The notes beneath the pieces were generated by a model. That model saw only the letters and a list, made by a program, of their open reading frames with translations. It made no database searches and was not told the DNA's origin. From NCBI GenBank assembly GCA_934149325.1, contig CAKPEJ010000003.1:11142-75141 (forward strand): a DNA stretch of 64,000 nt, given 5' to 3'. Shown here piece after piece: positions 15,910 to 34,018 of the stretch. Made by a program: the position numbers and the translations under genes. The DNA comes from an uncultured Bacilli bacterium (lineage in GTDB: Bacteria > Bacillota_I > Bacilli_A > RF39 > UBA660). Every line of letters begins with the position of its first letter. Position 1 is the stretch's first letter.

Positions 15910-15918
15910 GGAGTAAAT

Positions 15919-17091
15919 ATGAAAAGGGTTAAATTTAATATATTTCATTTAGTTATATTACTATATTTAATATTTTCTATTTTTATAAATAAATTAATAG
16001 ATTTAAAAACATATAATTTGATTATAAATCCAATTTTCTGGTTAATTATTTCTATTTCAATTTATATAAGAACAGGAAATAATCATGGAAGATTTTCAAA
16101 ATTAAATGAAAACGAAAAAACAATTTTAATAACAACTTTATTTTACCTAATAATAAACTTTATGAGTGGACTTATTTTTGGTTATACAAGTAATCCATAT
16201 TCAAATAAAGTAATTCCATTTTTAACAAACTTTTGGCAAATAGTAATAGTTATAATGGGAATAGAATATACAAGAAGTTATGTAATTAATGAAAATAAAA
16301 ATAATAAACTTTTTGTTATTCTATTTACTATTATATTTATCTTATTAGAAATAAATTTTTCTAAACTATTTTCTAGTATAAATGATAGAGAAGAATTATT
16401 TAAATATGTATCATCAACTTTGTTACCTCTTGTTTTTGGTAATATACTTTATACATATTTAACTATAAAAGGGTCTTATAAACTTGTATATATTTATAGA
16501 GTTATAGTGGAAGTAACATTTTTAATAGTTCCAATATTACCAAATTTTGATTGGTTTATGATTGGTATTAGAGGTATAATTGTTCCTGCTATTATTTATT
16601 TAGTATTAAAATATACATCAAATTATAAAGCTGTTAGAGCTAGATCTAATGGTAGAAAAAAACAAAATCCACTTATATATGTTCCAGTATTTTCTATAAT
16701 CTTGATTTTTGTATTATTTATGGCTGGAATATTCATTTATGAACCTATAGCGGTATTATCTAATAGTATGAATCCTGTTTTTTATAGGGGAGATGTGGTA
16801 ATATATCGTAAAGTTGACAATAATAAATTGAAAAATATTAAAAAGTATAATATAATTATTTATAGTAAGGATGGACAGGCTGTTGTTCATAGAGTAGTAG
16901 ACAAATATATAAAAGATGGTGAAACATATTTTATAACTAAGGGTGACGCTAATATATCTAATGATTTAAATCCTGTAAGTGAAAGTCAGGTAATAGGGGT
17001 ATATCAGTTATCTATTAAATACATTGGTTATCCATCTGTTTGGTTAAATCAAATATTTAATTATGAAAAACCTAATGTAGAAATAAAGTAA
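15919..17091 (+). CDS. sipW: SipW-type (ER/archaeal-type) signal peptidase I domain fused to an N-terminal ~270-aa polytopic membrane domain
   Basis: C-terminal region has AVLSNSMNPVFYRGDVVIY (SxSMxP Ser box), VVHRVV (His box) and FITKGDANISND (box E). The N-terminal ~270 aa form multiple TM helices of unknown function. Confidence 0.7.
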   Translation: MKRVKFNIFHLVILLYLIFSIFINKLIDLKTYNLIINPIFWLIISISIYIRTGNNHGRFSKLNENEKTILITTLFYLIINFMSGLIFGYTSNPYSNKVIPFLTNFWQIVIVIMGIEYTRSYVINENKNNKLFVILFTIIFILLEINFSKLFSSINDREELFKYVSSTLLPLVFGNILYTYLTIKGSYKLVYIYRVIVEVTFLIVPILPNFDWFMIGIRGIIVPAIIYLVLKYTSNYKAVRARSNGRKKQNPLIYVPVFSIILIFVLFMAGIFIYEPIAVLSNSMNPVFYRGDVVIYRKVDNNKLKNIKKYNIIIYSKDGQAVVHRVVDKYIKDGETYFITKGDANISNDLNPVSESQVIGVYQLSIKYIGYPSVWLNQIFNYEKPNVEIK

Positions 17092-17102
17092 AGGTGATAT
17101 GA

Positions 17103-18158
17103 GTGAGTAAGCAAAGTAGTGCAAAAAAAAGACTTATATTGAAAACTTGGGTTAGAGTAGTATTATTTATTACTCTAAGTTTTTTGCTTGCTTTATCAAT
17201 TTTTGTCGTATATAAAGGAAAAAATCCATCAAAAGATAATATTGATTCATATAATTATAGAACAAATTCAAATATAGATTATAAAGTTTATTTATTTGAA
17301 AATAATTTCTATGAAGAAAAATATTTGGGAATGAATAAGCAATATACAAGTGCACTTATAGATTATGTAGATATAGATTTTGATTATTTATTTAATGGTT
17401 CTGGAAAAGCAAATATAAATTATACATATGATATAACCGCAACTATAATTGGTGAATATGAAAATACAAGTAATGGTAAAGATGAAATATGGAAAAAGAA
17501 ATATACATTACTTGAAAAACAAAATAAAAATGTTTTAGATACAACTTCATTTGATATTCATCAAAATGTAAAAATTAAATATGGTACATATAATAATATA
17601 GTTAATGATTTTAAAACAAGATTTAAACTTGCGATAGATGCATATTTAAATGTAAAATTAACAGTAAAATATGATAGTAATATAATTAATACAAAATCAG
17701 ATGTAAAAGATACAGATGTACTTGAAATAAATATACCACTTAATTCTAGTACTATAAAAATTACGCCTAATTATACAAAAGCAACTAGTAAAAAGTTATC
17801 AAAAGATGATACTATAATTGAAGATCCTGTAACTATTAGAACAGGATATACTATGCTTACAATTACAATAATAATGTTTGTGTTGTTAATTCCAAAATTA
17901 TTTACTTCACATAAAAGTTATTATTTAAAACAACTAAATAAAATAATGAAAAATTATAGTGAAATAATAGTTGAAGTAACAACACCACTTAATTTTGATA
18001 ATTTAATTACTTTGGATATTAAAACATTTGATGATATGGTTGATATAGAAGAAGAGATTAAGTCACCAATATTATATTATGAAATAGAAGAAAATAAAGA
18101 ATCTTGGTTTATAATTGTTACTGAAAAATATATGTATAGATATATATTAAAGAAATAA
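17103..18158 (+). CDS. Hypothetical bitopic membrane protein
   Basis: TM at residues ~20-40 and ~245-265; no recognisable motifs; sits in the same gene string as sipW. Confidence 0.3.
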   Translation: MSKQSSAKKRLILKTWVRVVLFITLSFLLALSIFVVYKGKNPSKDNIDSYNYRTNSNIDYKVYLFENNFYEEKYLGMNKQYTSALIDYVDIDFDYLFNGSGKANINYTYDITATIIGEYENTSNGKDEIWKKKYTLLEKQNKNVLDTTSFDIHQNVKIKYGTYNNIVNDFKTRFKLAIDAYLNVKLTVKYDSNIINTKSDVKDTDVLEINIPLNSSTIKITPNYTKATSKKLSKDDTIIEDPVTIRTGYTMLTITIIMFVLLIPKLFTSHKSYYLKQLNKIMKNYSEIIVEVTTPLNFDNLITLDIKTFDDMVDIEEEIKSPILYYEIEENKESWFIIVTEKYMYRYILKK

Positions 18159-18258
18159 GAAATTATTTCTTTTTTTTGTAAATTTACTATCAAGTGTAAA
18201 TTTACTTTAATAATTATATATGCTATAATTAAACTCGCACAAAGAGGGTGTTAGGATT

Positions 18259-18753
18259 GTGTGTTATTTAGATGGAGAATATAATCAAATTGTTTATGAT
18301 ATACTTAATAACGAAGAATTTAAAAAATTAAAAAATATTGAACATCATGGTATGACTAGATATGATCATTCACTTAGAGTTTCATATTATTCATATGTTC
18401 TTGCTAAAAAGATAGGTCTTGATTATGTATTAGTTTCAAGAGCAGGATTGCTTCATGATTTCTTTTTTAGTGAAGATGATAGAACAAAAAAAGATAGATT
18501 AGTATCAACATTTGTTCATCCTAAATTTGCGGTTGAAAATTCACTAAAATACTTTTCAATAACAGAAAAAGAAAAAAATATAATAGAATCTCATATGTTT
18601 CCTTTATATAAGACTTTACCTAAATATAGTGAAAGTTGGCTTGTTAGTATAGTTGATAAAGTAGTAGCGACATATGAATTTAGTCAAAAATTTAAATTTA
18701 AACTTGATTATGCAACTAATTTAATGATTTTGTTTATTATAAGCAAACTTTAA
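18259..18753 (+). CDS. HD-domain phosphohydrolase
   Basis: HHGMTRYDHSLRVSYYSY...LLHDFF HD motif. Confidence 0.65.
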   Translation: MCYLDGEYNQIVYDILNNEEFKKLKNIEHHGMTRYDHSLRVSYYSYVLAKKIGLDYVLVSRAGLLHDFFFSEDDRTKKDRLVSTFVHPKFAVENSLKYFSITEKEKNIIESHMFPLYKTLPKYSESWLVSIVDKVVATYEFSQKFKFKLDYATNLMILFIISKL

Positions 18754-18764
18754 ATTAGTTTTTT

Positions 18765-18812
18765 TATTTATCAAATATAGGACACCAATACCAAAAGCTG
18801 TTGTTGCTAACT
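18765..18812 (+). other. Putative attL-type site of a large serine recombinase (inverted relative to attR)
   Basis: In gene orientation: B arm ...GCAACAACAGC, core TTTTGG, P' arm TATTGGTGTCCTATATTTGATA. The P' arm is the inverted counterpart of the P arm at 29776-29792. Confidence 0.6.
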
Positions 18813-20007
18813 CAACTGGTCCAACTTTATCTAAATCAAATAAAATACCTGTTGCTTCACCATTTAAATCTATTCCAGTTTTTTTACCAAATCCAAATTT
18901 ATTTATATAACTAAATAATTTTTCTTTTCCAAGTCTTTGACCTAATGCAACAAATCCAGGGTTACATGAATTTTCAACAACTTGAAGAAAAGTTTGAGAT
19001 CCATGACCACCACTTTTCCAACATTTTATTTTTGCATTCGCAACTCTTACACTACCACCATCATAAAAATGTTCTTCAGTTAAATTAACAAGATTTTCTT
19101 CTAAAGATGATGCAAGAGTAATTATTTTGAATGTTGATCCTGGTTCATAATTCATCCAAATAGGTAAATTCCTATTAATTTCTTCTAATGAGTATTTTTG
19201 ATAATTCGCAGGATCAAAATTAGGTCTTGAACTCATCGCTAGTATTTCACCAGAGTTAGGATCCATCGCAATCGCAAGTGCATGTTCAGGATTATATTTA
19301 GTAACTACATTATCAAGTTCTCTTTCAACAGATAATTGTATATCATTATTTATTGTTAACTCTATATTAATTCCATCAGCTGGTTCTTCATATATTTCAT
19401 TTAGTTTTAATTTATTACCCTTAGCGTCTGAAAAATATTTTATAGATCCATAAGCACCTGTCAAATATTTATTATATTGTAATTCAAGTCCTGATAATCC
19501 TTGATTGTCTATTCCTACATATCCTAAAACATGTGATAGGTTTTTGTCATAAACATAATTTCTTTTTGATTCTTTTACTAAATAAACTCCATCTATTTTT
19601 AAAGCATTTATCTTATCTGCAACTTCAAAAGGTAATCTTCTTCCTTCTGGATGTACTCTTTCTATAGATGTCTTTTTATTTACGTGTTTACTCATTTCTT
19701 CTTCATCAATATTTAATATTTCAGCAAGTTTCTTTGTTGCAGTTTTTTTATCCTTTATTTGATTTGGTATTAAAACTAAACTTGTAGTTGTAACATTATT
19801 CGCAAGAACAGTTAAATTTCTGTCGTAAATAATACCTCTATTTCCTTCAATAGGTAAGTTTCTACTCCATAAATCATTTGAGAGAGTTGTAAGTTTTTTA
19901 TATTCAATTACTTGTATATATAAAACTTTTAATAATACTATTACAAACAACATAATTACTATTACAAAAAATAATCTAATTTTTAAATGAATATCTTTAA
20001 CAAACAC
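18786..20007 (-). pseudogene. Class B PBP (PBP2/SpoVD-like), 5' segment of a gene split by an 11-kb invertible segment
   Basis: N-terminal TM, dimerisation domain, STFK and SCN motifs. The homology ends at ...ELATTAFG and then runs into unrelated codons (IGVLYLINKK*). The missing KTG-containing remainder lies at 29782-30489 on the other strand. Confidence 0.8.
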
Positions 20008-20116
20008 ATGTCCACCTCTAATAAAATATATGTAATTATAATTCTGATATGAAAATAAAAAAATCTTTACTTGAAGGCGTTTTTATGTATAATAATATGT
20101 TAGGTGAGGATTATAT

Positions 20117-21115
20117 ATGAAAATAGAAATGATGGAATACTTATCAAATAAAATAAGTGATGTTAATATACAAAAAAAGGTTATAGAAGTTTTAGATGGA
20201 ATGAATTTTTTAGAAACAAAAGAAATTGTTAATGCATTAGAAGAATGTGATTTTAATGAATATGCGATTGATTTAGTTATTAATGAAAATGTATTAAAAA
20301 CAAGAACAGTAGAAGAACAAATAAGATTAATAGAAGTTTTAAAAGACAGTAATTATAACTATAATGTATATAATATATATAATATAATAACAAATCCTTA
20401 TGTATTAAAAAATAGAACAGTAGAAGATCAAATAAGATTAATAGAAGTTTTAAAAGAAAATGATTATAATGAAGATGTTTATGAAATAATAACAAATCCT
20501 TATGTATTAAAAAATAGAACAGTAGAAGATCAAATAAGATTAATAGAAGTTTTAAAGAATAGCGATTATAACTATGATGTTTATGAAATAATAGTAGATT
20601 TACAATTATTAAAAAATAGAACGATAGAAGAACAAATAAAACTAATTGAAGTATTAAAAGAATGTGATTTTGAAGATAGAGTATGGAGAGTAGCAGTATC
20701 TTCAAATGTATTAGAAAATAGAACGATAGAAGAACAAATAAAACTAATTGAAGTATTAAAAGAATGTGATTTTGAAGATAGAGTATGGAGAGTAGCAGTA
20801 TCTTCAAATGTATTAGAAAATAGAACGATAGAAGACCAAATAAAACTAATAGAAGTTTTAAAGAATAGTGATTATAATAAGAATGTTTATGAAATAATAA
20901 TAGATTCAGAAATTTTAAAAAACAGAACAATGGAAGAACAAATAAAGATGATTGAGTTATTGAAAATACAAAAGGTATATCATGATGAAAATATTAATAA
21001 TATATTACCATTAAAAGATTTTAAAAGTGATTTAAAAGAATTAAAGAGTAAAATGGGAGAAGATGTTGATATAAAAAGTGATACAATGGTAAAAGTGTAT
21101 AATCCAAAAGAGTAA
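20117..21115 (+). CDS. Tandem-repeat protein (~40-aa repeats NRT[IV]E[ED]QI[RK]LIEVLK...)
   Basis: Seven or eight repeats. Two adjacent 60-nt-periodic blocks (20641-20760 region) are identical at the nucleotide level. Confidence 0.4.
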   Translation: MKIEMMEYLSNKISDVNIQKKVIEVLDGMNFLETKEIVNALEECDFNEYAIDLVINENVLKTRTVEEQIRLIEVLKDSNYNYNVYNIYNIITNPYVLKNRTVEDQIRLIEVLKENDYNEDVYEIITNPYVLKNRTVEDQIRLIEVLKNSDYNYDVYEIIVDLQLLKNRTIEEQIKLIEVLKECDFEDRVWRVAVSSNVLENRTIEEQIKLIEVLKECDFEDRVWRVAVSSNVLENRTIEDQIKLIEVLKNSDYNKNVYEIIIDSEILKNRTMEEQIKMIELLKIQKVYHDENINNILPLKDFKSDLKELKSKMGEDVDIKSDTMVKVYNPKE

Positions 21116-21222
21116 GCAATTAACTTACTTTTTTTACATTAAAATTAACATTTTTTGTTATTCTATTTACATTTTTACTTATTTTGTTATATAATAATTT
21201 AGTCGAAAGAGGAGTGAATAAA

Positions 21223-22635
21223 ATGCAAAAGACAAAAATGATTTGTGGAATAGGACCAGCAACACAAGACTGGGAAGTATTTAAAAAATTAGTAGAAAAT
21301 GGAATGAATGTTGTTCGTGTTAATTTTTCTCATGCTACTGATGAAGAAAGAAGAATTGATGAAGAATTAGCAATAAGAGCAAGAAAAGAATTAGGTAAGA
21401 ATGTAGCAATTTTATTTGATACAAAAGGACCAGATTTAAGAACTTGTGAATTTGAAAACAATGAAATTGAATTTGTTGAAGGAAATACTATTAGAATTGT
21501 TAGAGAATCAGTTATAGGTAACAAGGAAAGAATTAGTTTTAATTTTCCTCAAGTAATTGATAATTTAAAAGTTGGAACAATGATATTATTAAATGATGGA
21601 TTTGTAAGACTTGAAGTTATTTCAGTTGAAGAAGATGGAGTTACTTGTAAAATATTAGATAGTGCAAATTTAATAAGTAGACGTGGAACTAATATTCCAG
21701 GTGTAGACTTAAATATACCATTTATATCAGAAGCAGATGAAGCTGATATTAAATATGCTTGTGAACATGATGGAGATTATCTTGGAATATCATTTGTTTC
21801 AAGTGCTGATGATGTAAGAGCAGCTAGAAAATTACTTGAAAAATATGGTAAACCAGATATGCAAATTTTATCTAAAATTGAAACTGCAAAAGCAATTGAA
21901 AATATAGATGAAATTATAGATGAAACAGATGGTATTATAGTAGCTAGAGGTGACTTAAGTGTTGAAGTACCATTTATAGAAGTACCAGTTTTACAAAAAG
22001 AAATTTTAAGAAAATGTCGTGAAAAAGGAAAAATTTGTATTGTAGCTACTGAAATGCTTAAGAGTATGTGTAAAAATTCAAGACCTACAAAGGCTGAATT
22101 AACAGATGTTTCAACAGCTGTATTTGATGGAGCAGATGCTGTATGGTTAAGTGATGAAACTACAATTGGTGCTCATCCAGATTTAGCTTCTCAATATTTA
22201 GGAGAAATTTGTGGAGTTGCAGAAAAACATTATAATGAATATGCTACAAGATATAATGTGGAAACTACACATGATGTACACGATATAATTGCTCAAGGTG
22301 TTACAAAAGCAGCTGATGATTTAGATGTTAAATTAATAGTTGCATCTACAATGAGTGGATTTACAGCACAAAAAATTAGTAATTTAAAACCAGATGCATT
22401 TATTTTAGCACCAGTACCAAATGAAAAAATCGCAAGAAGATTAGTTCTTAATTGGGGAGTATATCCAGTTGTTGTTCCTGAGTATACATCTACTGATGAA
22501 GTAGTTTCAATTGGTCTTGAAAAAGCAAAAGAATTTATGGATTTAAAACAAGGAGATAAAGTAATTATAACTGGAGGTTTCCCTAATACAGGAGACAAAG
22601 TTACAAACTTTATGAAAATAGAAGAAATAAAATAA
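21223..22635 (+). CDS. pyk: Pyruvate kinase
   Basis: MQKTKMICGIGPA, NFSHA, TKGPDLR, MVARGDLSVE. RBS AGAGGAG. Confidence 0.9.
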   Translation: MQKTKMICGIGPATQDWEVFKKLVENGMNVVRVNFSHATDEERRIDEELAIRARKELGKNVAILFDTKGPDLRTCEFENNEIEFVEGNTIRIVRESVIGNKERISFNFPQVIDNLKVGTMILLNDGFVRLEVISVEEDGVTCKILDSANLISRRGTNIPGVDLNIPFISEADEADIKYACEHDGDYLGISFVSSADDVRAARKLLEKYGKPDMQILSKIETAKAIENIDEIIDETDGIIVARGDLSVEVPFIEVPVLQKEILRKCREKGKICIVATEMLKSMCKNSRPTKAELTDVSTAVFDGADAVWLSDETTIGAHPDLASQYLGEICGVAEKHYNEYATRYNVETTHDVHDIIAQGVTKAADDLDVKLIVASTMSGFTAQKISNLKPDAFILAPVPNEKIARRLVLNWGVYPVVVPEYTSTDEVVSIGLEKAKEFMDLKQGDKVIITGGFPNTGDKVTNFMKIEEIK

Positions 22636-22737
22636 TATTTTAATAGGCACTTTAAAAAGTGTCTATTTTTTCTTGACTTAAGATATATAAGTGGTATAAT
22701 TGTTTTTGTTAGTTACCTAACAAAATAGAGGGATGTT

Positions 22738-23175
22738 ATGAAAAAGTTAATAGGGTATGAAATAAAAAACTTAAATAATATGATAGAAAGAAAAATAATA
22801 AATGTTCATAAGCCATTAAAAAGTGAATGTATTATAACACCAATACAGGTAAAAATAATAGAATATATTATGGAGAATAATAGTAATACAGTCTATCAAA
22901 GGGATGTAGAAAAATATTTAAATTTAAGAAGATCTACTATTTCTGGTATTTTGCAAACAATGGAGAAGAACAATATTATTATAAGAGTTAATTCAAAGGT
23001 TGATGCAAGAAGTAAAGAGATAAAATTAACTGATAGATGCTTATCAAAGGTTAATTTTTTAAAGGGAAAAACAATTGATTTTGAAAATAAAATTAAGTGT
23101 GGTATTTCAAATGAAGAATTAGATGTCTTTTTTTCTGTTATAGATAAGATAAAAAATAATGTTGAAAAATTATAG
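22738..23175 (+). CDS. MarR-family transcriptional regulator
   Basis: 145 aa with a winged-HTH pattern (ITPIQVKIIEYI...RDVEKYLNLRRSTISGILQTMEKNNII); TTGACT-N16-TATAAT promoter upstream. Confidence 0.7.
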   Translation: MKKLIGYEIKNLNNMIERKIINVHKPLKSECIITPIQVKIIEYIMENNSNTVYQRDVEKYLNLRRSTISGILQTMEKNNIIIRVNSKVDARSKEIKLTDRCLSKVNFLKGKTIDFENKIKCGISNEELDVFFSVIDKIKNNVEKL

Positions 23176-23202
23176 GTAACTATGTAATGAAAGGATGATA
23201 AT

Positions 23203-24966
23203 ATGTTAAAGTTATTTAAAAATTTTAATAAAAAAGATTATGGTGTAATATTATTATCTTTAATTTTAATTGTTATTCAAGTTTGGTTAGAATTAAAGAT
23301 GCCAGATTATATGTCTGAGATAACTGTTTTAGTTCAAACTGAAGGAAGTAAAATGAAGGATATATTGATGAATGGTGGATATATGCTTTTATGTGCTTTT
23401 GGAAGTTTAATTTCATCAGTTTTTGTTGGATATTTAGCTGCAAAACTTTCTTCTGTTTTTTCTATGAAAACAAGAAAAAAATTATTTAACAAAGTTGAAG
23501 ATTTAAGTACAAGTGAAGTTAAGAATTTTTCATGTAGTAGTTTAATTACTAGGACTACAAATGATATAACACAAATAGAAATGCTTATAGCTATGGGACT
23601 TCAATTAATGATTAAGGCCCCAATAACAGCAGTTTGGGCAGTTTCTAAAATAGTTAATAAAAATTTCGAATGGAGTGTTATTACAGGAGTTGCAGTACTA
23701 ATATTATTAACAGTAATAGGAATATTAACTTTAATAGTTATACCTAAGTTTAAAGTTGTTCAAAAACTTACTGATAAATTAAATAGTGTTACTAGAGAAA
23801 ATTTAACAGGTATAAGAGTGGTTAGAGCTTTTAATGCAGAAAAATATCAAGAAGATAAGTTTGAAGATGTAAATAACAAACTTACAAATCAACAACTATT
23901 TAACCAAAGAACATTTTCTATAATGTCACCAACAATGTATTTAGTTATGAATTTTTTAACACTATCTATTTATTTTGTAGGTGCTTATTTAATAAAAGAT
24001 TCTTTATTAGTTGATAAGTTATCTTTATTTGGAGATATGGTTGTATTTTCATCTTATGCAATGCAAGTTATAATGTCATTTTTAATGCTTGCGATGATAT
24101 TTATGATGCTTCCAAGGGCATCAGTTTCAGCAAAACGTATTAATGAAGTATTAGATACAGATATAAGTGTAAAAGATGGCACTTTAGATAATCCTAAAAC
24201 TGATGAAGTTGGAACTGTTGAATTTAAAAATGTATCATTTAAATATCCAGATGCTGAAGAATATTTAATAAATAATATTTCATTTAAAGCAGAAAAGGGA
24301 GAGGTAGTTGCATTTATTGGATCAACTGGTTCGGGAAAATCAACTTTAATAAATTTAATCCCAAGATTTTATGATGCGACTGATGGTGAGATATTAGTTG
24401 ATGGAATAAATGTAAAGGATTATAAATTTGAAAGTTTATATAACAAATTAGGTTGTGTTCCACAAAAGGCCGTTATGTTTGATGGAACTGTTAATTATAA
24501 TGTTTCTTATGGCGATAATGGTAAAGGTAAAAAAAGTGAAAAGACAATAAAAGAGGCAATAGAAGTTGCTCAAGGAACAGAATTTGTTCTTAAAATGGAT
24601 AATAAATATAGTTCACATATTTCACAAGGTGGAAGTAATATATCAGGTGGACAAAAACAAAGACTTGCAATCGCAAGAGCAATTGCGCGTAATCCAGAAA
24701 TATATATATTTGATGATTCTTTTTCTGCTCTTGACTACAAGACTGATTCAGTATTAAGAAAAGAATTAAAAAAATATACAAAGAATGCTACTACATTGAT
24801 TGTAGCGCAAAGAATAGGTACTATAATGAATGCAGATAAGATTATTGTACTTGATAATGGTGAGTGTGTTGGAATGGGAACACATAAAGAATTACTTAAA
24901 AATTGTGAAGTTTATAAGCAAATAGCTTTATCACAATTGTCAAAGGAGGAACTTGAAAATGAATAG
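23203..24966 (+). CDS. ABC exporter, fused permease-ATPase (half of a heterodimeric multidrug-type exporter)
   Basis: Six TM segments plus Walker A GSTGSGKST, signature LSGGQKQR and Walker B IYIFDDSFSALD. Confidence 0.85.
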   Translation: MLKLFKNFNKKDYGVILLSLILIVIQVWLELKMPDYMSEITVLVQTEGSKMKDILMNGGYMLLCAFGSLISSVFVGYLAAKLSSVFSMKTRKKLFNKVEDLSTSEVKNFSCSSLITRTTNDITQIEMLIAMGLQLMIKAPITAVWAVSKIVNKNFEWSVITGVAVLILLTVIGILTLIVIPKFKVVQKLTDKLNSVTRENLTGIRVVRAFNAEKYQEDKFEDVNNKLTNQQLFNQRTFSIMSPTMYLVMNFLTLSIYFVGAYLIKDSLLVDKLSLFGDMVVFSSYAMQVIMSFLMLAMIFMMLPRASVSAKRINEVLDTDISVKDGTLDNPKTDEVGTVEFKNVSFKYPDAEEYLINNISFKAEKGEVVAFIGSTGSGKSTLINLIPRFYDATDGEILVDGINVKDYKFESLYNKLGCVPQKAVMFDGTVNYNVSYGDNGKGKKSEKTIKEAIEVAQGTEFVLKMDNKYSSHISQGGSNISGGQKQRLAIARAIARNPEIYIFDDSFSALDYKTDSVLRKELKKYTKNATTLIVAQRIGTIMNADKIIVLDNGECVGMGTHKELLKNCEVYKQIALSQLSKEELENE

Positions 24967-27280
24967 AAAAGAAAATACTCCTAAAAAAATGAATCATGGA
25001 CCAAATATACAGATAGAAAAAGCAAAAGATTTTAAAGGTTCTATAAAAAGATTATTTAATGAACTTGATGGATTCAAATCTTTAATATTAGTTGCATTTA
25101 TTTTAGCTTGTGCTGGAAGTATTTTATCAATATTAGCGCCAGATAAATTATCAAGTTTAACAAATGAAATAAGTAAAGGACTTGTAATAGATACAAAGAA
25201 TTTTAAATTAATAACTAAAAATGTTACAAATAGCCTAACTGAAGAAAATTTAGGAAAGGTTATGCCATATATTATAAATATAGATGAAAATTCTGTGTTA
25301 AAAGTTATGACTTCCACTGATATATCAGATTCTGATAAAGAAAAGTTTAAAAATATATTGTCTGATAAAGATAATATGCAAAAAAATATTTCAAATTTAT
25401 CTGATGATGTATTAAATGTATTATTAGAAGATTCTAAATATAATGATATAACTATAACAAAGAGCGATAAAAAAGAATTTTTAAAGAATATTAATAATAA
25501 AGAAAATATTTCTTTTCCAAATTCTATAGCAAAGATAATATTTAAACCTTTTAAAGTTGATAATGAAACTATATCAGAGTTAGATCAAGAAAAATTTTTA
25601 AGTATATCAAGTAAGATGGATAAAAAGTCTTCATCAAAAGAGTTATATTCATCAATTGATAAAATGCATAAAAGTATAAAAAAAGTAGTAGAACCAACAA
25701 TGAATATGAAAAAAATAAAGAAGATAGGTATATTACTTTCATCATTTTATATTCTTAGTGCAATATTTACATTTGTTCAATCTTTAATAATGGCAACAGT
25801 TTCAAATAAATTTGCTAAAAAGTTAAGAAGCAATATATCAAATAAGATAAATAAGATGCCACTTAAATATTTTGATAAACATCAATCAGGAGATATATTA
25901 TCGAGAGTTACAAATGATGTTGATACAATTGCTCAAACAATGAATCAATCATTAGGAACATTAGTAAGTTCTATAACATTATTTTTAGGTACAATTATTA
26001 TGATGTTTTATACAAATTATATAATGGCTATAACAGCAATTGTATCAAGTTTATTAGGATTTATGTTTATGTTTTCTGTACTTGCAAAAAGTCAAAAATA
26101 CTTTACCATGAAACAAACTGAACTTGGTAATTTAAATGGTCATATTGAAGAAGTTTATTCTGGACTTAATGTTGTAAAAGTTTATAATGGGAAAAAAGAA
26201 TCTAATGAAAAATTTGATAAATATAATAAAAGAGTATATGAAGCAAATAGAAAAAGTCAATTTTTATCAGGTTTAATGATGCCTATGATGGGATTTATTG
26301 GTAATTTTAGTTATGTTATGGTATGTCTAGTAGGTGCTCTTCTTACAATGAATGATGTTATAAGTTTTGGTGTAATAGTAGCATTTATAGTTTATGTAAG
26401 ATTATTTACATCACCACTTTCTCAAATTGCGCAAGCTATGAATTCTCTTCAATCAACTGCAGCAGCATCTGAAAGAGTATTTGAATTTGTTGATGAAGAA
26501 GAAATGAGTAATGAGAAAAAAATAAAAAAATATTTAAATAAAGATAAAGTAAAAGGTAAAATTGAATTTGATCATGTTATGTTTAAATATGATGGAAACG
26601 AAAATCCTACAATAAAAGATTTTAATGCAAAAATAAAACCTGGACAAAAAGTTGCTATAGTAGGTCCAACTGGTGCTGGTAAGACTACAATGGTTAATTT
26701 ACTTATGAAGTTTTATGAAATAAATTCTGGAGATATAAGAATTGATGATGTTTCTACTAAAGAATTATCAAGGAAAAATATTCACGAATTATTTACAATG
26801 GTACTTCAAGATACTTGGTTATTTGAAGGAACAATAAAAGAAAATATTATATATAATAGAAAGAATGTAACTGACGAGAAAGTAAAAGAAGTATGCAAAA
26901 TAGTAGGACTTGATCATTTTATTAGAACTATGCCAAAAGGATATAATTCTTTTGTATCTGATAATGACAGTGTTTCAGCAGGACAAAGACAATTACTAAC
27001 AATCGCAAGAAGTATGATTAATGATTCACCATTTTTAATACTTGATGAAGCAACAAGTAATGTTGACACAAGAACAGAAGAACTTGTTCAAAAGGCAATG
27101 GATAAATTAACAGAAGGAAAAACTTCATTTATAATTGCTCATAGACTTTCAACTATAAAAAATGCTGATTTAATTCTTGTTATGAAAGATGGAAATATAA
27201 TAGAACAAGGATCACATAATGAGTTAATGAAAAAGAAAGGTTTTTATTCTGAATTATATAATTCGCAATTTGAAAAATAA
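24959..27280 (+). CDS. ABC exporter, fused permease-ATPase with ~190-aa extracytoplasmic insert between TM1 and TM2
   Basis: Walker A GPTGAGKTT, signature VSAGQRQL and Walker B ILDEATSNVD. A long hydrophilic insert sits after TM1. Confidence 0.85.
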   Translation: MNRKENTPKKMNHGPNIQIEKAKDFKGSIKRLFNELDGFKSLILVAFILACAGSILSILAPDKLSSLTNEISKGLVIDTKNFKLITKNVTNSLTEENLGKVMPYIINIDENSVLKVMTSTDISDSDKEKFKNILSDKDNMQKNISNLSDDVLNVLLEDSKYNDITITKSDKKEFLKNINNKENISFPNSIAKIIFKPFKVDNETISELDQEKFLSISSKMDKKSSSKELYSSIDKMHKSIKKVVEPTMNMKKIKKIGILLSSFYILSAIFTFVQSLIMATVSNKFAKKLRSNISNKINKMPLKYFDKHQSGDILSRVTNDVDTIAQTMNQSLGTLVSSITLFLGTIIMMFYTNYIMAITAIVSSLLGFMFMFSVLAKSQKYFTMKQTELGNLNGHIEEVYSGLNVVKVYNGKKESNEKFDKYNKRVYEANRKSQFLSGLMMPMMGFIGNFSYVMVCLVGALLTMNDVISFGVIVAFIVYVRLFTSPLSQIAQAMNSLQSTAAASERVFEFVDEEEMSNEKKIKKYLNKDKVKGKIEFDHVMFKYDGNENPTIKDFNAKIKPGQKVAIVGPTGAGKTTMVNLLMKFYEINSGDIRIDDVSTKELSRKNIHELFTMVLQDTWLFEGTIKENIIYNRKNVTDEKVKEVCKIVGLDHFIRTMPKGYNSFVSDNDSVSAGQRQLLTIARSMINDSPFLILDEATSNVDTRTEELVQKAMDKLTEGKTSFIIAHRLSTIKNADLILVMKDGNIIEQGSHNELMKKKGFYSELYNSQFEK

Positions 27281-27282
27281 TG

Positions 27283-27312
27283 AATATGCAAATGCATATT
27301 CTTTTTTTTATT
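27283..27312 (+). terminator. Rho-independent terminator after the ABC operon
   Basis: gaatatgcaaatgcatattc stem followed by a T-run. Confidence 0.6.
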
Positions 27313-27340
27313 TAATATATTGTATAAGAAAGGAAATTTT

Positions 27341-27481
27341 ATGGACAAGTATAATTATGAATACAGTATATTAAAATATAGATTATTACTTAATAAAAGA
27401 TTATATGAAGAGAAGGTTATTGATATAGAAACTTATCAAAAAATGGAAGATTATTTAATAAAAAAATTAAATAGAGGGTGA
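27341..27481 (+). CDS. Small ORF (46 aa) immediately upstream of and overlapping the recombinase gene
   Basis: MDKYNYEYSILKYRLLLNKRLYEEKVIDIETYQKMEDYLIKKLNRG; RBS AAGGAAA. Not in the supplied ORF track because it is under 60 aa. Confidence 0.3.
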   Translation: MDKYNYEYSILKYRLLLNKRLYEEKVIDIETYQKMEDYLIKKLNRG

Positions 27482-29043
27482 TACTTATTAATATTGTAAA
27501 AATAAGAAATGAAATAAAAAATGGTAAAAATTTATGTGATATGAATTTAAGAGTTGTGTATTATGCAAGGGTATCAACAGACAAAGATGAACAAATAAAT
27601 TCTTTGGAAAATCAGAAAAATTACTTTGAAGAATTAATTAATGAAGAAAAAAACTGGATATTATCTGGTTCATATATAGACGAAGGAATATCTGGTACTA
27701 GTGTAAAAAAAAGAGAAAGTTTTTTAAAAATGATAAGTGATGCAAAAAAAGGTAAGTTTGATATGATACTTACAAAAGAAGTATCTCGTTTTGCTCGTAA
27801 TACTATTGATTCAATTAAATATACTCAGTATTTACTTGAAAAAGGTGTTATAGTAAATTTTATAAATGATAACATTAATACAGTTTTTTCAGATTCAGAA
27901 TTTAGGTTAACACTAATGTCTAGTTTAGCGCAAGATGAGGTTAGAAAATTAAGTGAAAGAGTTAAATTTGGATTTAAGAGAAGTATAAAAGATGGAAGAG
28001 TATTAGGTGGAGGAAATATAACTGGATATGATAAAAGAAATGGAAAATTGTATATAAATGAAAAAGAAGCAAAAATGATAAGGATGTTATTTGATTTATA
28101 TGTATCAAATGGATATGGGTTTAAGAAAATATCTAAAATATTATTTAGTCATGGTTATAAAAATACTAAAGGAGAAATGTATTCAGAAAGAGTTCTTTCA
28201 AGAATGATTACAAACCCAAAATATAAAGGATACTATTGCGCAAATAAAAGCTATATTGAAAATTATAGAACTCATAAAAAAATACTGAAACCTAAAAGTG
28301 AATGGATAATGTATAAGGATGAAAATATACCAGTTATAATAGATGAAAAAATATTTGATGAAGCAAATAGAATATATAATGAAAAAAGAAAAGTGAGTAA
28401 AAGAAATTTATATAATATTGAAAAAATATATGCAGGAAAATTAATATGCAATTGTCATAATAAAAATTTTTCTATTATTTCATCAGGTAATAGAAAAAAT
28501 AAGCCAGTATGGGTTTGTCAAGAATATATAAAAGACGGTGTGAAAGGTTGTTTAAGTCCAATACTAGAAGAAGAAAAATTAAATGATATATTTAAAAAAG
28601 TAATAAAAGAAAATTTCTTTTTAGATGATAAATTAACTCAAAACATATTAAACGATTATGTAAAAATAATAAATTTTGATAATAAAAAAGAAGAATTGAT
28701 AAAAGTAAAAAATAAAATAATTTTATCAAAAGAGAAAATATTAGAATTATTTATGGAAGATATAATAACAAAAGATGAGTATAAGATTAAAAATGATAGT
28801 TATAATAAAGAGTTAGAAAATATAAATGAAAAATTAAAAAGTATAGATAAATATGATAATAAGAATGATATAAAAAAATTAGAAAATAAAATTCAAAAGT
28901 TTTTGAATATAGATAATTCATATAAAGACTTATTTAAAATATTAGTAGATAAAGTTATAGTTGAAAAATGTGATGGGGATAGAAATAATATAAAGTTAAA
29001 TATTTATTTTAATTCAAATAAAATTATAGGCATAAAGTATTAA
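27478..29043 (+). CDS. Large serine recombinase (SpoIVCA/phiC31-integrase family)
   Basis: N-terminal resolvase catalytic domain with the serine motif (VVYYARVSTDKDEQ...SLENQ...GYIDEGISG...SRFARN), then recombinase and zinc-ribbon/coiled-coil domains (CNC...C). 521 aa. Possible true start at MNLRVVYYAR. Confidence 0.9.
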   Translation: MILINIVKIRNEIKNGKNLCDMNLRVVYYARVSTDKDEQINSLENQKNYFEELINEEKNWILSGSYIDEGISGTSVKKRESFLKMISDAKKGKFDMILTKEVSRFARNTIDSIKYTQYLLEKGVIVNFINDNINTVFSDSEFRLTLMSSLAQDEVRKLSERVKFGFKRSIKDGRVLGGGNITGYDKRNGKLYINEKEAKMIRMLFDLYVSNGYGFKKISKILFSHGYKNTKGEMYSERVLSRMITNPKYKGYYCANKSYIENYRTHKKILKPKSEWIMYKDENIPVIIDEKIFDEANRIYNEKRKVSKRNLYNIEKIYAGKLICNCHNKNFSIISSGNRKNKPVWVCQEYIKDGVKGCLSPILEEEKLNDIFKKVIKENFFLDDKLTQNILNDYVKIINFDNKKEELIKVKNKIILSKEKILELFMEDIITKDEYKIKNDSYNKELENINEKLKSIDKYDNKNDIKKLENKIQKFLNIDNSYKDLFKILVDKVIVEKCDGDRNNIKLNIYFNSNKIIGIKY

Positions 29044-29117
29044 ATTATGTCTTTTTTATTGATAAATATTTTTATAAATGATAAAATATTTACTCGTGAA
29101 TAGATGTAGGTGAAAAA

Positions 29118-29774
29118 ATGGAAAAAGTAGTAAAAAGTGATTTAAGTAATGTATATAAAGAAGTTAAAGATAGTTTATTTGAATGTAAAATAATGAATGA
29201 GAATATAAGAAATGCAAAATATCACCATAATGCTAAATTTTTTCAAGGTCCATCTATAATAAAATCAGGAATTTTATCATTAGATGAACAAAGAAAATTA
29301 GAAGGAAGAAAAATTACTGAAAGAGAAAAAAATATTTTAAGTGATGAATGTTATGTTAATGGTAGTGAATATATATCTATTTCTAGTGGTGATATTGATT
29401 ATGAATATATATCAGAAAAAGAATTTATATATAATTCTACTTTACCTAACTTTTTGGATATATTAATTTCAAATGATATATCAGCTATGAGAAATAGTAT
29501 TAATTATGCTAATGAATATTTAGTTTATAAGAGAATATCTCCTAAAAAAATAGAGTCAATAGATACGAGAATTTTAGCCTTGTCAAATCTTTCTACTATG
29601 AATGAAGAAGAAAAAATTAATGAAATAATTAAGAATTTTAATTATATAAGATTAATTTCAAAAGAAATATTAAAACGCAATAGGGAAATTTTATTACGTG
29701 AAGTTAGTGATGATGAAATAAATTTAGATGTAGAAAAGTTAACTAAAATGCCTAAATTAATATTAGAAAAATAA
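29118..29774 (+). CDS. Hypothetical protein adjacent to attR (candidate accessory/directionality factor)
   Basis: 218 aa, no recognisable motifs. The stop codon abuts the attR P arm. Confidence 0.3.
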   Translation: MEKVVKSDLSNVYKEVKDSLFECKIMNENIRNAKYHHNAKFFQGPSIIKSGILSLDEQRKLEGRKITEREKNILSDECYVNGSEYISISSGDIDYEYISEKEFIYNSTLPNFLDILISNDISAMRNSINYANEYLVYKRISPKKIESIDTRILALSNLSTMNEEEKINEIIKNFNYIRLISKEILKRNREILLREVSDDEINLDVEKLTKMPKLILEK

Positions 29775-29815
29775 TATCAAATATAGGATACCTTTTGGCC
29801 AAGGAGTTAGTGTTA
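29770..29815 (+). other. Putative attR-type site of a large serine recombinase
   Basis: P arm ATCAAATATAGGATACC, core TTTTGG, then B' arm CCAAGGAGTT that continues the PBP reading frame (FGQGVSVTP). TTGGCCAA is an 8-bp palindrome. Confidence 0.6.
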
Positions 29816-30489
29816 CACCTATACAGCAAATAACAGCAGTTTCAGCAGCAATAAATGGTGGAAAGTTATATAAACCATATGTTGTAAAAAGTATGCTTGA
29901 GCCAGAAACAAATACTCCTATAAAAACAAATAAAAAGAAACTTGTTAGAAGGGTAATTAGTAAAGATACTAGTAAAAAAGTTGCAATGGCACTTGAAAGT
30001 GTTGTAACTAATGGAACTGGTAGAAATGCATTTATTGATGGATACAGGGTAGGTGGTAAAACAGGTACTGCACAAAAAGTAAAAGATGGAAAATATATGG
30101 CAGGAAATTATATTGTTTCTTTTATTGGCTTTCTTCCAGCAGATGATCCTAAAATAGTAGTATATGTTGCAATTGATAATCCTAAGGGAGTAGTTCAATA
30201 TGGTGGAACAGTTGCAGCACCAGTTGCAAGAGCAATATTAGAAGATTCAATAACAGCTTTAAATATAAAAAAGAGAAAAGATGCAAGTGAAAAAAATTAT
30301 CAATTTTGGGAGAAAAAATATGTAGAAGTACCAAATTTAATAGGTCAGAACTATGATAAGATAAAATTTAATTTAGGTAGTTTTGATGTTCAATATTCTG
30401 GAAGTGGAAATAATATTATATATCAATCACCTAAAGCAGGAGAAAGAGTACTTGAAGGAAGTAAAATTAGAATACTTCTTGGCAATTAA
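29782..30489 (+). pseudogene. Class B PBP, 3' segment (transpeptidase C-terminal part with KTG motif) of the split gene
   Basis: Frame is open from 29767 with no start codon. ...FGQGVSVTPIQQITAVSA...GYRVGGKTGTAQKV... continues exactly where the minus-strand 5' segment stops (…ATTAFG). Confidence 0.8.
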
Positions 30490-30585: not shown

Positions 30586-31578
30586 ATGTATATTTTAGCT
30601 AAGTCAGTTTTAGCCTTAATGATAGGTTTTATAGCATCTGTTTTACTAGGTCTTATCCTAGTACCATTACTTAAAAAAATTAAAGCAGATCAAACAACAA
30701 GTAGATTTGTAAAAGCTCATAAAGGAAAAAGTGGAACACCAACGATGGGTGGACTTATATTTACTTTATCAACTATAATTACTATATTTGCTTTATATAT
30801 TACTAACAAACTAAAAATATCTAGTAATTTAATCATTATCTTATTTGTATTTTTTGGTTATGGTCTTATAGGATTTGTTGATGATTTCTTAAAAATAAAG
30901 TATCAAAGTAATGAAAAAGGCTTAACAAGAATGCAAAAATTTATTGCTCAAACATTATTAGCAATTGTATTTTTCTATATTTATATAAGAAATGGATCAA
31001 ATCCTATAATAGAGATATATGCATTAAATTTAGAGATTAATTTAGGATTTATGTATGGTTTCTTTATCTTGTTTATGTTAGTTGGAACAAGTAATGCTGT
31101 AAATTTAACAGATGGACTTGATGGACTTGCTGCAGGGTTATCAGCTATTGCATTTTTAGTATATGGTATGATTGCATGGAACTCAGGATGGCTTTCAGGA
31201 TATGATGATGTAGCGGTATTTTGTTTTATATTAGTAGGTGGATTACTTGGATTTTTAGTATTTAATGCTCATCCTGCTAAAGTGTTTATGGGAGACACAG
31301 GATCTTTAGCATTAGGTGGAACACTTGCAACACTTGCAATTCTTACACATCGTGAAGTTTCTTTAATTGTTATTGGTGGTGTATTTGTTTTAGAAACATT
31401 ATCAGTTATTTTACAAATAGCATCAGTAAAATTAAGAGGTAAAAAAATCTTTCCAATGACTCCAATTCATCATTCTTTTGAAAAATGGGGATGGAAAGAA
31501 CCAGATATCGTCAGATTATTTTATGTAATAGGATTTATACTAGGTGCAGGAGCACTAGTATATGGTGTTTGGATTTAA
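30586..31578 (+). CDS. mraY: Phospho-N-acetylmuramoyl-pentapeptide transferase MraY
   Basis: NAVNLTDGLDGLA, MGDTGSLALGG. Confidence 0.9.
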   Translation: MYILAKSVLALMIGFIASVLLGLILVPLLKKIKADQTTSRFVKAHKGKSGTPTMGGLIFTLSTIITIFALYITNKLKISSNLIIILFVFFGYGLIGFVDDFLKIKYQSNEKGLTRMQKFIAQTLLAIVFFYIYIRNGSNPIIEIYALNLEINLGFMYGFFILFMLVGTSNAVNLTDGLDGLAAGLSAIAFLVYGMIAWNSGWLSGYDDVAVFCFILVGGLLGFLVFNAHPAKVFMGDTGSLALGGTLATLAILTHREVSLIVIGGVFVLETLSVILQIASVKLRGKKIFPMTPIHHSFEKWGWKEPDIVRLFYVIGFILGAGALVYGVWI

Positions 31579-32666
31579 TGAAAAAATTCGATTATAAATT
31601 ATTTGTACTCGTAGTATTATTATCAATATTTGGAATAGTTATGATTTTTTCTTCATCAGCTATATGGGCTGAATATAAATTTGACGATAAATATAGATTT
31701 TTAAAACTACAGAGCCTATTTTTTATAATTGGTATAATAGCAACAATCATAATATCAAAAGTAGATTATAAGAACTATTTAAAGAAAGCAAATGTTATAT
31801 TACTAGTTTGCTTTCTTTTATTAATTTTAGTATTAATACCTGGTATAGGAACACTTAGAAATGGTTCTAGAAGTTGGTTTGGAATAGGTGGACTTGGTGT
31901 TCAACCTAGTGAATTTATGAAACTTGGTATAATAATATTTGCAAGTAAATATTTAAGTAATTATCCAAAAGATATTAAAGATATAAAAAAAGGTGTATTT
32001 CCTATATTATTTTTAACCTTTTTAGTATTTGGACTTATAATGCTTCAACCGGATCTTGGAACAGGAGCAATAATATTAGTAACTGTAATTGGTTTGTTAT
32101 TTGTATCTGGTGTTGATATGACTTTCTTTGCAAGGATAATAGGTCTTGGATTGATAGGTTTATCAGCTCTTATAATAGCAGCACCATATAGAATAAAAAG
32201 AATAGTAGCATTTTTAAATCCATGGAGTGATCCACTTGGTTCAGGATTTCAATCTATTCAATCATTATATGCAATAGGTCCAGGAGGGCTCTTAGGAATG
32301 GGATTATTTAATTCTGTACAAAAGCATTTTTATCTTCCAGAACCACAAACAGATTTTATATTTTCAATAATTAGCGAGGAACTTGGTATTCTTGGTATAG
32401 TATTAGTTGCTACGTTGTTTATAAGTATAATATATAGATGTTTAAAAATATCCATTAACTGTAATGATTTGTTTGGAAAATATTTAGCATTTGGTATAAC
32501 ATTTCAATTAACATTTCAAACTCTTTTAAACTTAGCAGTAGTAGTTGGTTTAGTACCAATAACTGGCGTCACACTTCCATTTTTAAGCTATGGGGGATCA
32601 AGTCTTATAATTACATTGTGTAGTATAGGAATAATTTTAAATATAAGTAGACATCAAAATAAATGA
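31578..32666 (+). CDS. ftsW: FtsW/SpoVE-family lipid II flippase/peptidoglycan glycosyltransferase
   Basis: Start MKKFDYKLF overlaps the mraY stop (ATGA). SEDS-family polytopic protein (…PEPQTDFIFS…). Confidence 0.85.
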   Translation: MKKFDYKLFVLVVLLSIFGIVMIFSSSAIWAEYKFDDKYRFLKLQSLFFIIGIIATIIISKVDYKNYLKKANVILLVCFLLLILVLIPGIGTLRNGSRSWFGIGGLGVQPSEFMKLGIIIFASKYLSNYPKDIKDIKKGVFPILFLTFLVFGLIMLQPDLGTGAIILVTVIGLLFVSGVDMTFFARIIGLGLIGLSALIIAAPYRIKRIVAFLNPWSDPLGSGFQSIQSLYAIGPGGLLGMGLFNSVQKHFYLPEPQTDFIFSIISEELGILGIVLVATLFISIIYRCLKISINCNDLFGKYLAFGITFQLTFQTLLNLAVVVGLVPITGVTLPFLSYGGSSLIITLCSIGIILNISRHQNK

Positions 32667-32904: not shown

Positions 32905-33078
32905 TATTCTACCTCCTTTCTTATAAAGAATAGGAGGACGACACTCACATTAAATGTTCCTGTAAACATTGTAGCAAACAAATGTTTAATGTGCAATTAG
33001 TTTAATAAAAATTCATAAATAAAAATGATGTAATTTATAAAAATTGCAAAGAAATAAAAAATATGTTATTATGTATGT

Positions 33079-33194
33079 AGCAAGAAATCTTGCATAAAAT
33101 AAAAAAGGGAACATTCAATTTGCTAAGTTGAATGTCTACCAAAATGTTTTTTGAAGGCACTTATCTTTGCAAGAGATGAGTGCCATTTTTATTT
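33079..33194 (+). ncRNA. Candidate antisense sRNA, unit 2
   Basis: Promoter TTGCAA(33044)-N17-TATTAT(33067). Terminator ggcacttatct..agatgagtgcc followed by a T-run. Confidence 0.45.
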
Positions 33195-33960: not shown

Positions 33961-34018
33961 ATTTATAGACGATACTGTTTTTTATATAATTATAACGTGA
34001 TATAAGGGAGGTTTTAAA

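Follow-up and report, generated by a model that had tools for sequence, protein, structure and literature searches.

The locus described here raises the question of how a gene can serve its bearer when its two halves lie on opposite strands, 11 kb apart. It lies in a stretch of 64,000 nucleotides (the window, here meaning the whole of the DNA analysed) from an uncultured Bacilli bacterium (GenBank assembly GCA_934149325.1, contig CAKPEJ010000003.1, positions 11,142 to 75,141). In this window an initial annotation had noticed a penicillin-binding protein (PBP) gene divided in this way, an observation that was confirmed with coordinates shifted by a few bases. The answer proposed here is that the DNA between the halves is probably a sporulation-gene-intervening element in spoVD, with inverted recombination sites, that would be flipped in the sporulating mother cell by its large serine recombinase (LSR) together with a recombination directionality factor.

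On the minus strand, an open reading frame (ORF) at 20007-18721 encodes the first 405 residues of the PBP as far as ...ELATTAFG, comprising a membrane anchor, the PBP dimerisation domain, and the first half of the transpeptidase domain, and then runs through 22 unrelated codons to its stop. On the plus strand, a frame open from ~29782 reads ...FGQGVSVTPIQ... and ends at a stop at 30489, supplying the second half of the transpeptidase domain with its KTG motif and a PASTA domain. No ATG, GTG, or TTG stands in frame before 29893, in agreement with the description of this part as a C-terminal third lacking a start codon. When the gene arms are joined at the 6-bp core that the two junctions share (the last base of codon 404 plus codons 405-406, with the last base of G406 lying in the C-terminal part), the product is 1908 nt long, in frame, and encodes 635 amino acids. 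The rebuilt protein can be aligned over its full length (100% coverage) with intact proteins of 635-636 amino acids, to which it is 81-82% identical, and the junction is crossed with neither a gap nor a missing or duplicated residue; this is the comparison with an intact orthologue that had been called for. Some of these intact matches are labelled 'stage V sporulation protein D [Bacilli bacterium]' at source. Against the NCBIfam SpoVD equivalog model TIGR02214 (cutoff 688) the rebuilt protein reaches 743 bits, and the upstream paralogue pbp1 (11502-13643), with 332 bits, falls far short of the cutoff. Pfam Transpeptidase positions 2-158 are matched by the N-terminal half and positions 156-299 by the C-terminal half, and the motifs STFK (291-294), SCN (347-349), and KTG (493-495) are invariant in an alignment with intact SpoVD proteins. 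The gene after mraY passes the SpoVE model TIGR02615 (453.5 bits; cutoff 448.8). By these matches the interrupted gene is spoVD, in its usual place beside mraY-spoVE, and the window also contains an intact gene for a SigF/SigG-family sigma factor. SpoVD is a mother-cell sporulation protein in Bacillus subtilis. The earlier designation of the target as a 'dcw-cluster PBP' can therefore be narrowed to SpoVD, a target of the conventional kind for such elements.

Both junctions have the structure expected of LSR half-sites (arms and positions in Table 1). Homology to intact spoVD stops at the attL-type site, 16 nt from the stop codon of the neighbouring HD-domain gene, and each junction pairs a spoVD arm with an arm of the element, and the two arms of the element are mutually inverted copies, as had been claimed. 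The 17-nt non-gene arm ATCAAATATAGGAYACC occurs exactly twice in the 64 kb, both times at a junction (shuffled sequences average 0.06 occurrences), and the two sites have in common only a core of 6-7 bp plus one arm each. The predicted crossover dinucleotide is the GG of the core (CC on the plus strand at 18791-18792 for attL; 29797-29798 for attR). Rejoining is predicted to yield the gene site attB, GCAACAACAGCTTTTGGCCAAGGAGTT, and the reciprocal site attP, ATCAAATATAGGAYACCTTTTGGTATTGGTGTCCTATATTTGAT. Read from the sequence, the latter forms an imperfect palindrome of 17 + 10 + 17 nt centred on the GG, which bears out the near-palindromic attP of the initial annotation. At a related locus with a 58% identical recombinase at the same codon (L023), the rebuilt attP is likewise centred on the GG of TTGG. 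Arms forming imperfect inverted repeats, a non-palindromic central dinucleotide, and attL/attR hybrids, the features of serine-integrase att sites (which span ~40-50 bp), are thus all present. The attL-type site is unchanged in 20 conspecific loci, and the P arm of attR has three alleles among strains, of which the commonest (GGACACC) matches the P' arm perfectly in inverted form.

The relative orientation of the two sites determines what recombination between them can do. The core reads CCAAAA at 18791-18796 and TTTTGG at 29793-29798, i.e., it lies on opposite strands, as do the gene halves (the initial annotation gave the core correctly but placed it at 18786). With the cores on opposite strands, strand exchange must invert the ~11.0 kb between them and cannot excise it, so that the geometry of the sites dictates inversion instead of excision. 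The reading of the junctions as inverted, hybrid attL/attR half-sites is accordingly sustained. The prediction that inversion rebuilds a PBP of ~635 amino acids holds for geometry and product, but the inverted molecule itself was found in no collection searched.

The split layout is fixed in the gut Bacilli species to which the window belongs. In exact-protein look-ups, the attR junction (218-amino-acid gene, attR, spoVD-C, mraY) was present in 15/15, 14/14, and 24/24 contigs for three protein variants, and the attL junction (HD-domain gene, attL, spoVD-N on the minus strand) in 23/23 contigs in each of two look-ups. The conspecific contigs derive from Hadza, MERR22, and other gut metagenomes and from Logan assemblies; the same junctions recur in contigs of up to 359 kb, in many samples, and in SPAdes-, MEGAHIT-, and Logan-type assemblies. 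Strains carrying the split differ elsewhere, in the number of repeat genes (1-4), in an extra gene for 316-319 amino acids, and in the three attR P-arm alleles. An assembly chimera, or a mis-join at a repeat, might be suspected because the window is a single assembly and its junctions have a 17-nt repeat in common. However, the junctions are identical in many samples and in three assembly types, and a repeat of 17 nt is too short for assemblers to have been consistently misled. The probability of such an artefact, which had been named as a condition that would overturn the proposal, is therefore negligible.

A codon-by-codon comparison of 44 conspecific loci indicates that purifying selection acts on both halves of spoVD and on the LSR, and every strain compared has the gene split. 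The spoVD-N part has 17 synonymous and 4 non-synonymous polymorphic codons (ratio of non-synonymous to synonymous polymorphism, pN/pS, 0.06; P(neutral) = 7e-9), spoVD-C has 7 and 2 (pN/pS 0.08; P(neutral) = 6e-4), and the LSR gene has 23 and 19 (pN/pS 0.18; P(neutral) = 8e-8), although the non-synonymous counts are biased downward by the 10 loci that were retrieved by exact SpoVD-N identity. Loci retrieved via the HD-domain gene or the recombinase give the same pattern (5 synonymous and 3 non-synonymous codons in L111; 7 and 2 in L102). The neighbouring genes have comparable pN/pS values (pbp1 0.03, mraY 0.02, spoVE 0.05), and neither stops nor indels are found in spoVD-N, spoVD-C, or the LSR gene among the conspecific loci. 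Because spoVD-N lies inside the inverted segment, the layout cannot have spread without it, so that either its polymorphisms arose in the split state or the inversion recurs, and recurrent inversion would mean that the system itself is active. Selection on the halves and on the LSR argues that the split gene is still used, and is the chief evidence against a dead pseudogene.

It is against this background that the possibility of a frozen accident has to be considered, in which an excisable element would have undergone a secondary inversion, leaving spoVD a pseudogene in a species that does not sporulate or that uses another PBP. A single extra inversion, of the block from pyruvate kinase to attL (~18770-22700), would turn the standard layout of 22 relatives into that of the window, the rejoined state is seen nowhere, and the layout is known from one species only. 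These points have to be set against 24 synonymous versus 6 non-synonymous polymorphic codons in a spoVD free of stops and indels, a recombinase likewise under selection, conserved att sites, intact genes for SpoVE and the SigF/SigG-family sigma factor, and a pbp1 that scores far below the SpoVD cutoff, all of which leave this explanation quite improbable. In terms of the pseudogene that the initial annotation had allowed for, only the split orientation is seen, but the halves are not degraded.

The LSR itself is complete. Its domains match Resolvase (E = 3.5e-30), Recombinase (E = 9e-16), and Zn_ribbon_recom (E = 3e-6), and it matches a PHROG integrase family (E = 6.5e-103); among cultured-phage records its best match has at most 42% identity, and it has no close characterised relative. 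Y29, R31, the catalytic S33 (whose absence would have counted against the proposal), and S103-R104-x-x-R107 are invariant across 18 homologues, as are the zinc-ribbon cysteines C324, C347, and C358 across the homologues aligned, and a K/E/L-rich stretch at ~405-470 looks helical on visual reading of the alignment. In LSRs generally, directionality is governed by a coiled-coil motif within the zinc-ribbon domain, to which this stretch may or may not correspond. Within a 90% cluster of 37 variants, all 15 of those listed are full length. The gene ends 750 bp from the attR core, consistent with the ~0.7 kb first estimated. Departures were observed in two contigs: an extra 124 nt within the 3' part of the recombinase gene in a short contig (L011:468-591) and, in the other, a truncated recombinase of 460 amino acids together with a split mraY (L131:817-2199). 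Both are most likely assembly or sequencing errors and not decay, because the essential mraY is affected too.

The candidate for the directionality factor is the 46-amino-acid ORF that overlaps the recombinase start. A profile comparison places a homologue immediately before the LSR gene, in the same orientation, in 44 of the 79 related loci listed, and many of the small ORFs upstream of LSR homologues are preceded by a CATA-type -10-like box. The protein has no match in Pfam, PHROGs, NCBIfam, or PADLOC, and is proposed as the best candidate from its adjacency and from analogy to SprB, CD1234, and GirX. The 218-amino-acid ORF between recombinase and attR was also considered as a recombination factor and rejected, as it is not found in related LSR loci and a homologue lies beside a bacteriocin exporter without an LSR.

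Taken together, these features suggest the following course of events. The vegetative germ-line chromosome would carry spoVD split at codon G406, with the N-terminal part and its own promoter, the pyruvate kinase gene, the MarR-ABC module, and the recombinase module all on one 11-kb segment. If the LSR and the directionality factor (the 46-amino-acid protein being the best candidate) were made together, attL and attR would synapse, strand exchange at the central GG would flip the whole segment, and the promoter and N-terminal half would come to stand ahead of the C-terminal half, giving an intact spoVD directly upstream of mraY-spoVE and a near-palindromic attP between the HD-domain gene and the 218-amino-acid gene. 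The flip would take place in the mother cell during sporulation, the forespore and spore keeping the split state. The mother cell is the most likely place for the flip, being the only cell that needs SpoVD and one whose chromosome is discarded. The chemistry has precedents: CD1231, the sporulation LSR of skinCd, inverts plasmid DNA between inverted sites (PMC5025042), and phiC31 integrase, given its directionality factor, toggles the orientation of a segment (PMC6511857). We infer the occurrence and the timing of the inversion, as well as the identity of the directionality factor. Upstream of spoVD lies a pair of boxes (Table 1), which we take to fit the consensus of sigma-E or another mother-cell sigma factor. 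Intact spoVD is preceded by the -10 box CATATATT in L001, L120, and L118 alike, but by the TCATA -35 box only in L001 and L120 (L118 reads GTTCTAA).

Table 1. Positions in the window of the split gene, its recombination sites, and the genes of the intervening segment.
Feature	Position	Strand	Description
spoVD N-terminal part	18797-20007	minus	codons 1-403 and first two bases of codon 404
spoVD C-terminal part	29799-30489	plus	codons 407-635 and last base of codon G406
mraY and spoVE	30586-32666	plus	directly downstream of spoVD
attL-type site	18770-18807	minus	B arm GCAACAACAGC 18807-18797; core TTTTGG 18796-18791; P' arm TATTGGTGTCCTATATTTGAT 18790-18770
attR-type site	29776-29808	plus	P arm ATCAAATATAGGATACC 29776-29792; core TTTTGG 29793-29798; B' arm CCAAGGAGTT 29799-29808
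Segment predicted to invert	18793-29796		~11.0 kb between central dinucleotides; from geometry of both sites
Large serine recombinase, 521 amino acids	27478-29043	plus	Pfam PF00239, PF07508, PF13408
46-amino-acid ORF	27341-27481	plus	4-nt overlap with recombinase start; candidate recombination directionality factor
218-amino-acid ORF	29118-29774	plus	predicted ADP-ribosyltransferase fold (DarT/Tpt1-like); between recombinase and attR
34-amino-acid-repeat protein gene	20117-21115	plus	102-nt tandem repeats; host gene in invertible segment
Pyruvate kinase	21184/21223-22635	plus	host gene carried inside invertible segment
MarR regulator and two ABC exporter genes	22738-27280	plus	within invertible segment
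Sigma-E-like promoter candidate	20025-20052	minus	TCATATC, 13-nt spacer, CATATATT; upstream of spoVD

The window does not stand alone in carrying a recombinase within spoVD. A scan with the recombinase alignment against one genome per species listed at least 79 loci, with recombinases 40-58% identical, most of them in metagenome-assembled genomes named 'uncultured Bacilli bacterium' from human, rabbit, goat, chicken, and mouse guts; the genome of the window's own species is not among the loci listed. Fragments of spoVD are present in 56 of the 79 LSR loci listed, mostly directly beside the LSR gene. In a typical relative, the C-terminal fragment begins 40-150 nt past the recombinase stop and the N-terminal fragment is found 3-6 kb upstream in the same orientation. 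The insertion points fall at four conserved motifs, near amino acids 296 (STFK), 349 (SCN), 405 (FGQG), and 415 (TPIQ), which together with the frequency of spoVD fragments points to an LSR clade specialised on spoVD. Several genomes have two elements in one spoVD, and one locus (L029) has three recombinase genes. Example loci, among the listed L023-L101, are L023:5259-12335, L024:6937-12596, L029, L066, and L071. Judged from these arrangements, the window is the inversion form within a widespread family of spoVD-interrupting LSRs, and it is the inverted layout, not the interruption, that is novel. The literature searches found no published description of either the interruption of spoVD or its inversion, so that the view of the arrangement as undescribed stands as far as papers are concerned, but not its apparent isolation, given the large family of spoVD elements.

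Two loci of the window's own species (L103:2600-11863 and L105; Logan SRR29133850 and SRR29133670) have a second element of more than 9 kb at codon Q415, 27 bp past the first core (window 29825). It shares its P' arm exactly with the class-415 elements in L059 and L067 and has genes for a dCMP deaminase, GNAT acetyltransferases, NUDIX, radical SAM, dNK, PfkB, and MazG proteins. In these strains, the rebuilding of spoVD would need one inversion and one excision. In a sister species (L132:1-2684, Logan SRR14289618; L134), spoVD-C and mraY are 90% identical to those of the window at the amino acid level. At the same site, L132 has a 54% identical recombinase, a 53% identical homologue of the 218-amino-acid protein with its ADP-ribosyltransferase fold, and then an attR that keeps the core TTTTGG but has another P arm. 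This pattern points to a single attB at which elements are replaced or diverge fast.

Comparison with genomes in which spoVD is intact shows which part of the window has been turned around. L001, with an intact SpoVD of 81% identity, carries in sequence mraZ-rsmH-ftsL-pbp1, pyruvate kinase (minus), a gene for 294 amino acids, spoVD (plus), mraY, and spoVE. Its DNA matches the window in forward blocks up to pbp1 and from 29792 (spoVD-C) onward, and in reversed blocks for pyruvate kinase (22635-21151) and for spoVD-N with the 60 nt upstream of it (20066-18782). Pyruvate kinase likewise lies on the minus strand upstream of the intact spoVD of L120. Between pbp1 and spoVD, within the dcw cluster, the window has a block (13627-18753) of two TasA-like, a Big_2, a SipW-like signal peptidase, a DUF5305, and an HD-domain gene, the first of which overlaps the pbp1 stop codon by 17 nt. 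Since the order in L024 is pbp1-TasA-SipW-DUF5305-TasA-like-spoVD-mraY on a single strand, the TasA/SipW/DUF5305 block of the window (13.6-18.2 kb) is host DNA in its native orientation. On the same ground, the host order in L024, we rejected the alternative in which the TasA-SipW-DUF5305-HD block forms the left half of a 12-kb element inverted at a later time. The pyruvate kinase order of L001 and L120, together with the left flank of L024, indicates that the block from spoVD-N to pyruvate kinase is inverted in the window.

Judged from these gene orders, a flip would return all host genes to their ancestral orientation relative to one another. The order would then be pbp1...HD (plus), attP, the 218-amino-acid gene, LSR, 46-amino-acid ORF, ABC2, ABC1, MarR, pyruvate kinase, and repeat protein (all minus), spoVD (plus), and mraY. 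Two histories may account for the present layout: an attP-bearing module may have landed upstream, near attB, and then been flipped by the LSR, or a standard insertion may have come first, with the block that stretches from pyruvate kinase to attL inverted afterwards. No inverted repeats that could mediate a secondary inversion were found at the alternative breakpoints (18754-18770 versus 22636-22737).

Apart from the retrieval bias in the codon counts, several observations weigh against inversion in the mother cell as the explanation. The rejoined state occurs in none of the contigs read at either junction. When the rebuilt full-length SpoVD was compared with 5.8 billion protein clusters, the best intact match was 82% identical, and the best match of a 153-amino-acid peptide spanning the junction in the protein collection was 84% identical. 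JGI metagenomes contained neither the exact attP nor the exact attB pattern, and IMG/VR lacked the exact attP pattern, both being searches in which the presence of the species had no positive control. The direct attL/attR orientation that is a trait of skin-like elements, absent from the window, and with it an excisable layout, is found in all 22 of the evaluable listed relatives (those showing at least two spoVD fragments), and the inverted layout in none of them. Only a single species shows the inverted layout, the contigs of the sister species being too short to cover the N-terminal half. After a flip, attP and attB would remain in cis, so that the LSR alone could reverse it, and a stable ON state would therefore need sustained activity of the directionality factor. 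The directionality role is suggested for the 46-amino-acid protein by its adjacency to the LSR gene, and the promoter calls, being consensus matches in DNA of 25% G+C, are hints only.

The reversibility of the reaction also allows a different use of the same machinery, namely germ-line phase variation, in which vegetative flipping would create sporulation-competent (ON) and incompetent (OFF) lineages as a bet-hedging switch. Whereas excision sheds DNA, inversion retains all of it and could in principle be undone; an LSR alone drives attP x attB recombination and an LSR plus its factor attL x attR recombination (PMC5025042, PMC6511857); and selection on the gene halves and the LSR fits this use equally well. 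However, every contig examined at either junction is OFF, which means that ON lineages would be very rare under phase variation. The characterised elements of this kind all act in the mother cell (PMC4191935, PMC5025042), a sigma-E-like promoter candidate is conserved before spoVD, and the relatives with a direct layout cannot work as reversible switches. Phase variation is consequently regarded as unlikely, and inversion in the mother cell remains the probable reading. Synteny, family context, and population genetics all support the inversion mechanism of the initial annotation, which is still the best on offer.

The developmental gene reconstitutions known to us in endospore formers and heterocystous cyanobacteria are all excisions, and the present case, if true, would to our knowledge be the first by inversion. 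The resemblance to the skin and SPbeta systems pointed out in the initial annotation is apt. Like the window, skin with SpoIVCA (in sigK of B. subtilis) and skinCd with CD1231 and CD1234 (in Clostridioides difficile) have an LSR gene beside one junction, a split mother-cell sporulation gene, hybrid attL/attR sites with a short core, and a split germ line (PMC5025042). Control in these systems is given by a directionality factor (PMC5025042), which in the window is predicted only. Their sites are direct and the element leaves as a circle, whereas the sites of the window are inverted and nothing would be lost; unlike in skin and skinCd, host genes (pyruvate kinase and the repeat protein) ride on the flipped segment, and the target is spoVD and not sigK. 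The same logic, a mother-cell LSR and a small directionality factor that rebuild a sporulation gene, operates in SPbeta (SprA-SprB in spsM) and in vfbin (spoVFB), vrin (spoVR), and yin (yabG), which are all prophage-derived and act by excision (PMC4191935, PMC5499854, PMC10747680). In contrast to the family of the window, none of these lies in spoVD and none occurs as several independent elements per gene. Closer in size is gin in gerE of Bacillus cereus ATCC 10987 (GirC and GirX), a small, non-prophage element with a recombinase and an accessory factor (PMC5595907). The relatives of the window are gin-sized and free of phage genes (5.1 kb in L023, 3.7 kb in L024), but gin acts by excision on another gene, whereas in the window spoVD would be restored by inversion.

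Inversion as such is familiar from other switches. The engineered phiC31 and Bxb1 inversion latches use the same chemistry as is predicted for the window (PMC6511857); they are synthetic, whereas the window would be a natural chromosomal counterpart gating a developmental gene. In the Hin/Gin/Cin systems and the RecV invertons of C. difficile, inversion switches a gene, which is also the outcome predicted here. However, those systems use identical short repeats, with either a small invertase, an enhancer, and Fis or a tyrosine recombinase, and they act stochastically in the germ line. The enzyme of the window is of integrase type, with 521 amino acids as compared with ~190, and its sites are non-identical.

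On balance, though with less assurance than attaches to the element itself, the locus may be regarded as a natural LSR-driven developmental inversion latch within a clade-wide 'gene in pieces' organisation of spoVD, in which up to four codons would be interrupted and up to three elements would recombine per cell. The clade-wide pattern of spoVD in pieces, as read from the listed loci, is a further finding besides the inversion. If the proposal is true, the logic of recombinase and directionality factor survives the loss of an element's ability to leave, host genes can become passengers of a switch, and nature uses the attL/attR to attP/attB latch built by synthetic biologists. The LSR family at the catalytic-motif codons of spoVD would offer a set of orthogonal LSR/att pairs together with a candidate small directionality factor. 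A split spoVD could further serve as a marker of sporulation capacity in uncultured gut Bacilli, in which a spoVD annotated as 'broken' is probably functional.

Some of the remaining genes of the segment are probably cargo. An alignment-based structure model gives the 218-amino-acid protein a confident ADP-ribosyltransferase fold, closest to Tpt1/KptA and DarT (the single-sequence model has a predicted local distance difference test score, pLDDT, of 41). The protein belongs to an unnamed family of ~160 representatives with conserved H36-H37-N38, S87, N132-E133, and R194-E195. No macro-domain partner adjoins the ORF in the window, and a homologue adjoins a C39 bacteriocin ABC exporter in L133, where an LSR is lacking. 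The protein is probably cargo and not recombination machinery. The MarR and ABC genes, which are not beside pyruvate kinase in L001 and are under purifying selection in the window's species, may be either element cargo or host genes, and in three loci (L014, L017, and L018) the extra gene for 316-319 amino acids, which has no Pfam match, lies between pyruvate kinase and MarR. Paralogues of the repeat-protein gene (227-605 amino acids) number one to four per conspecific strain between spoVD-N and pyruvate kinase, and many assemblies break there. Downstream of spoVE, three copies of an intergenic repeat (33033-33136, 33371-33524, and 33759-33963; ~100-160 nt, 83-96% identical) were seen as secondary BLAST matches of conspecific contigs, and L102 is without part of this region.

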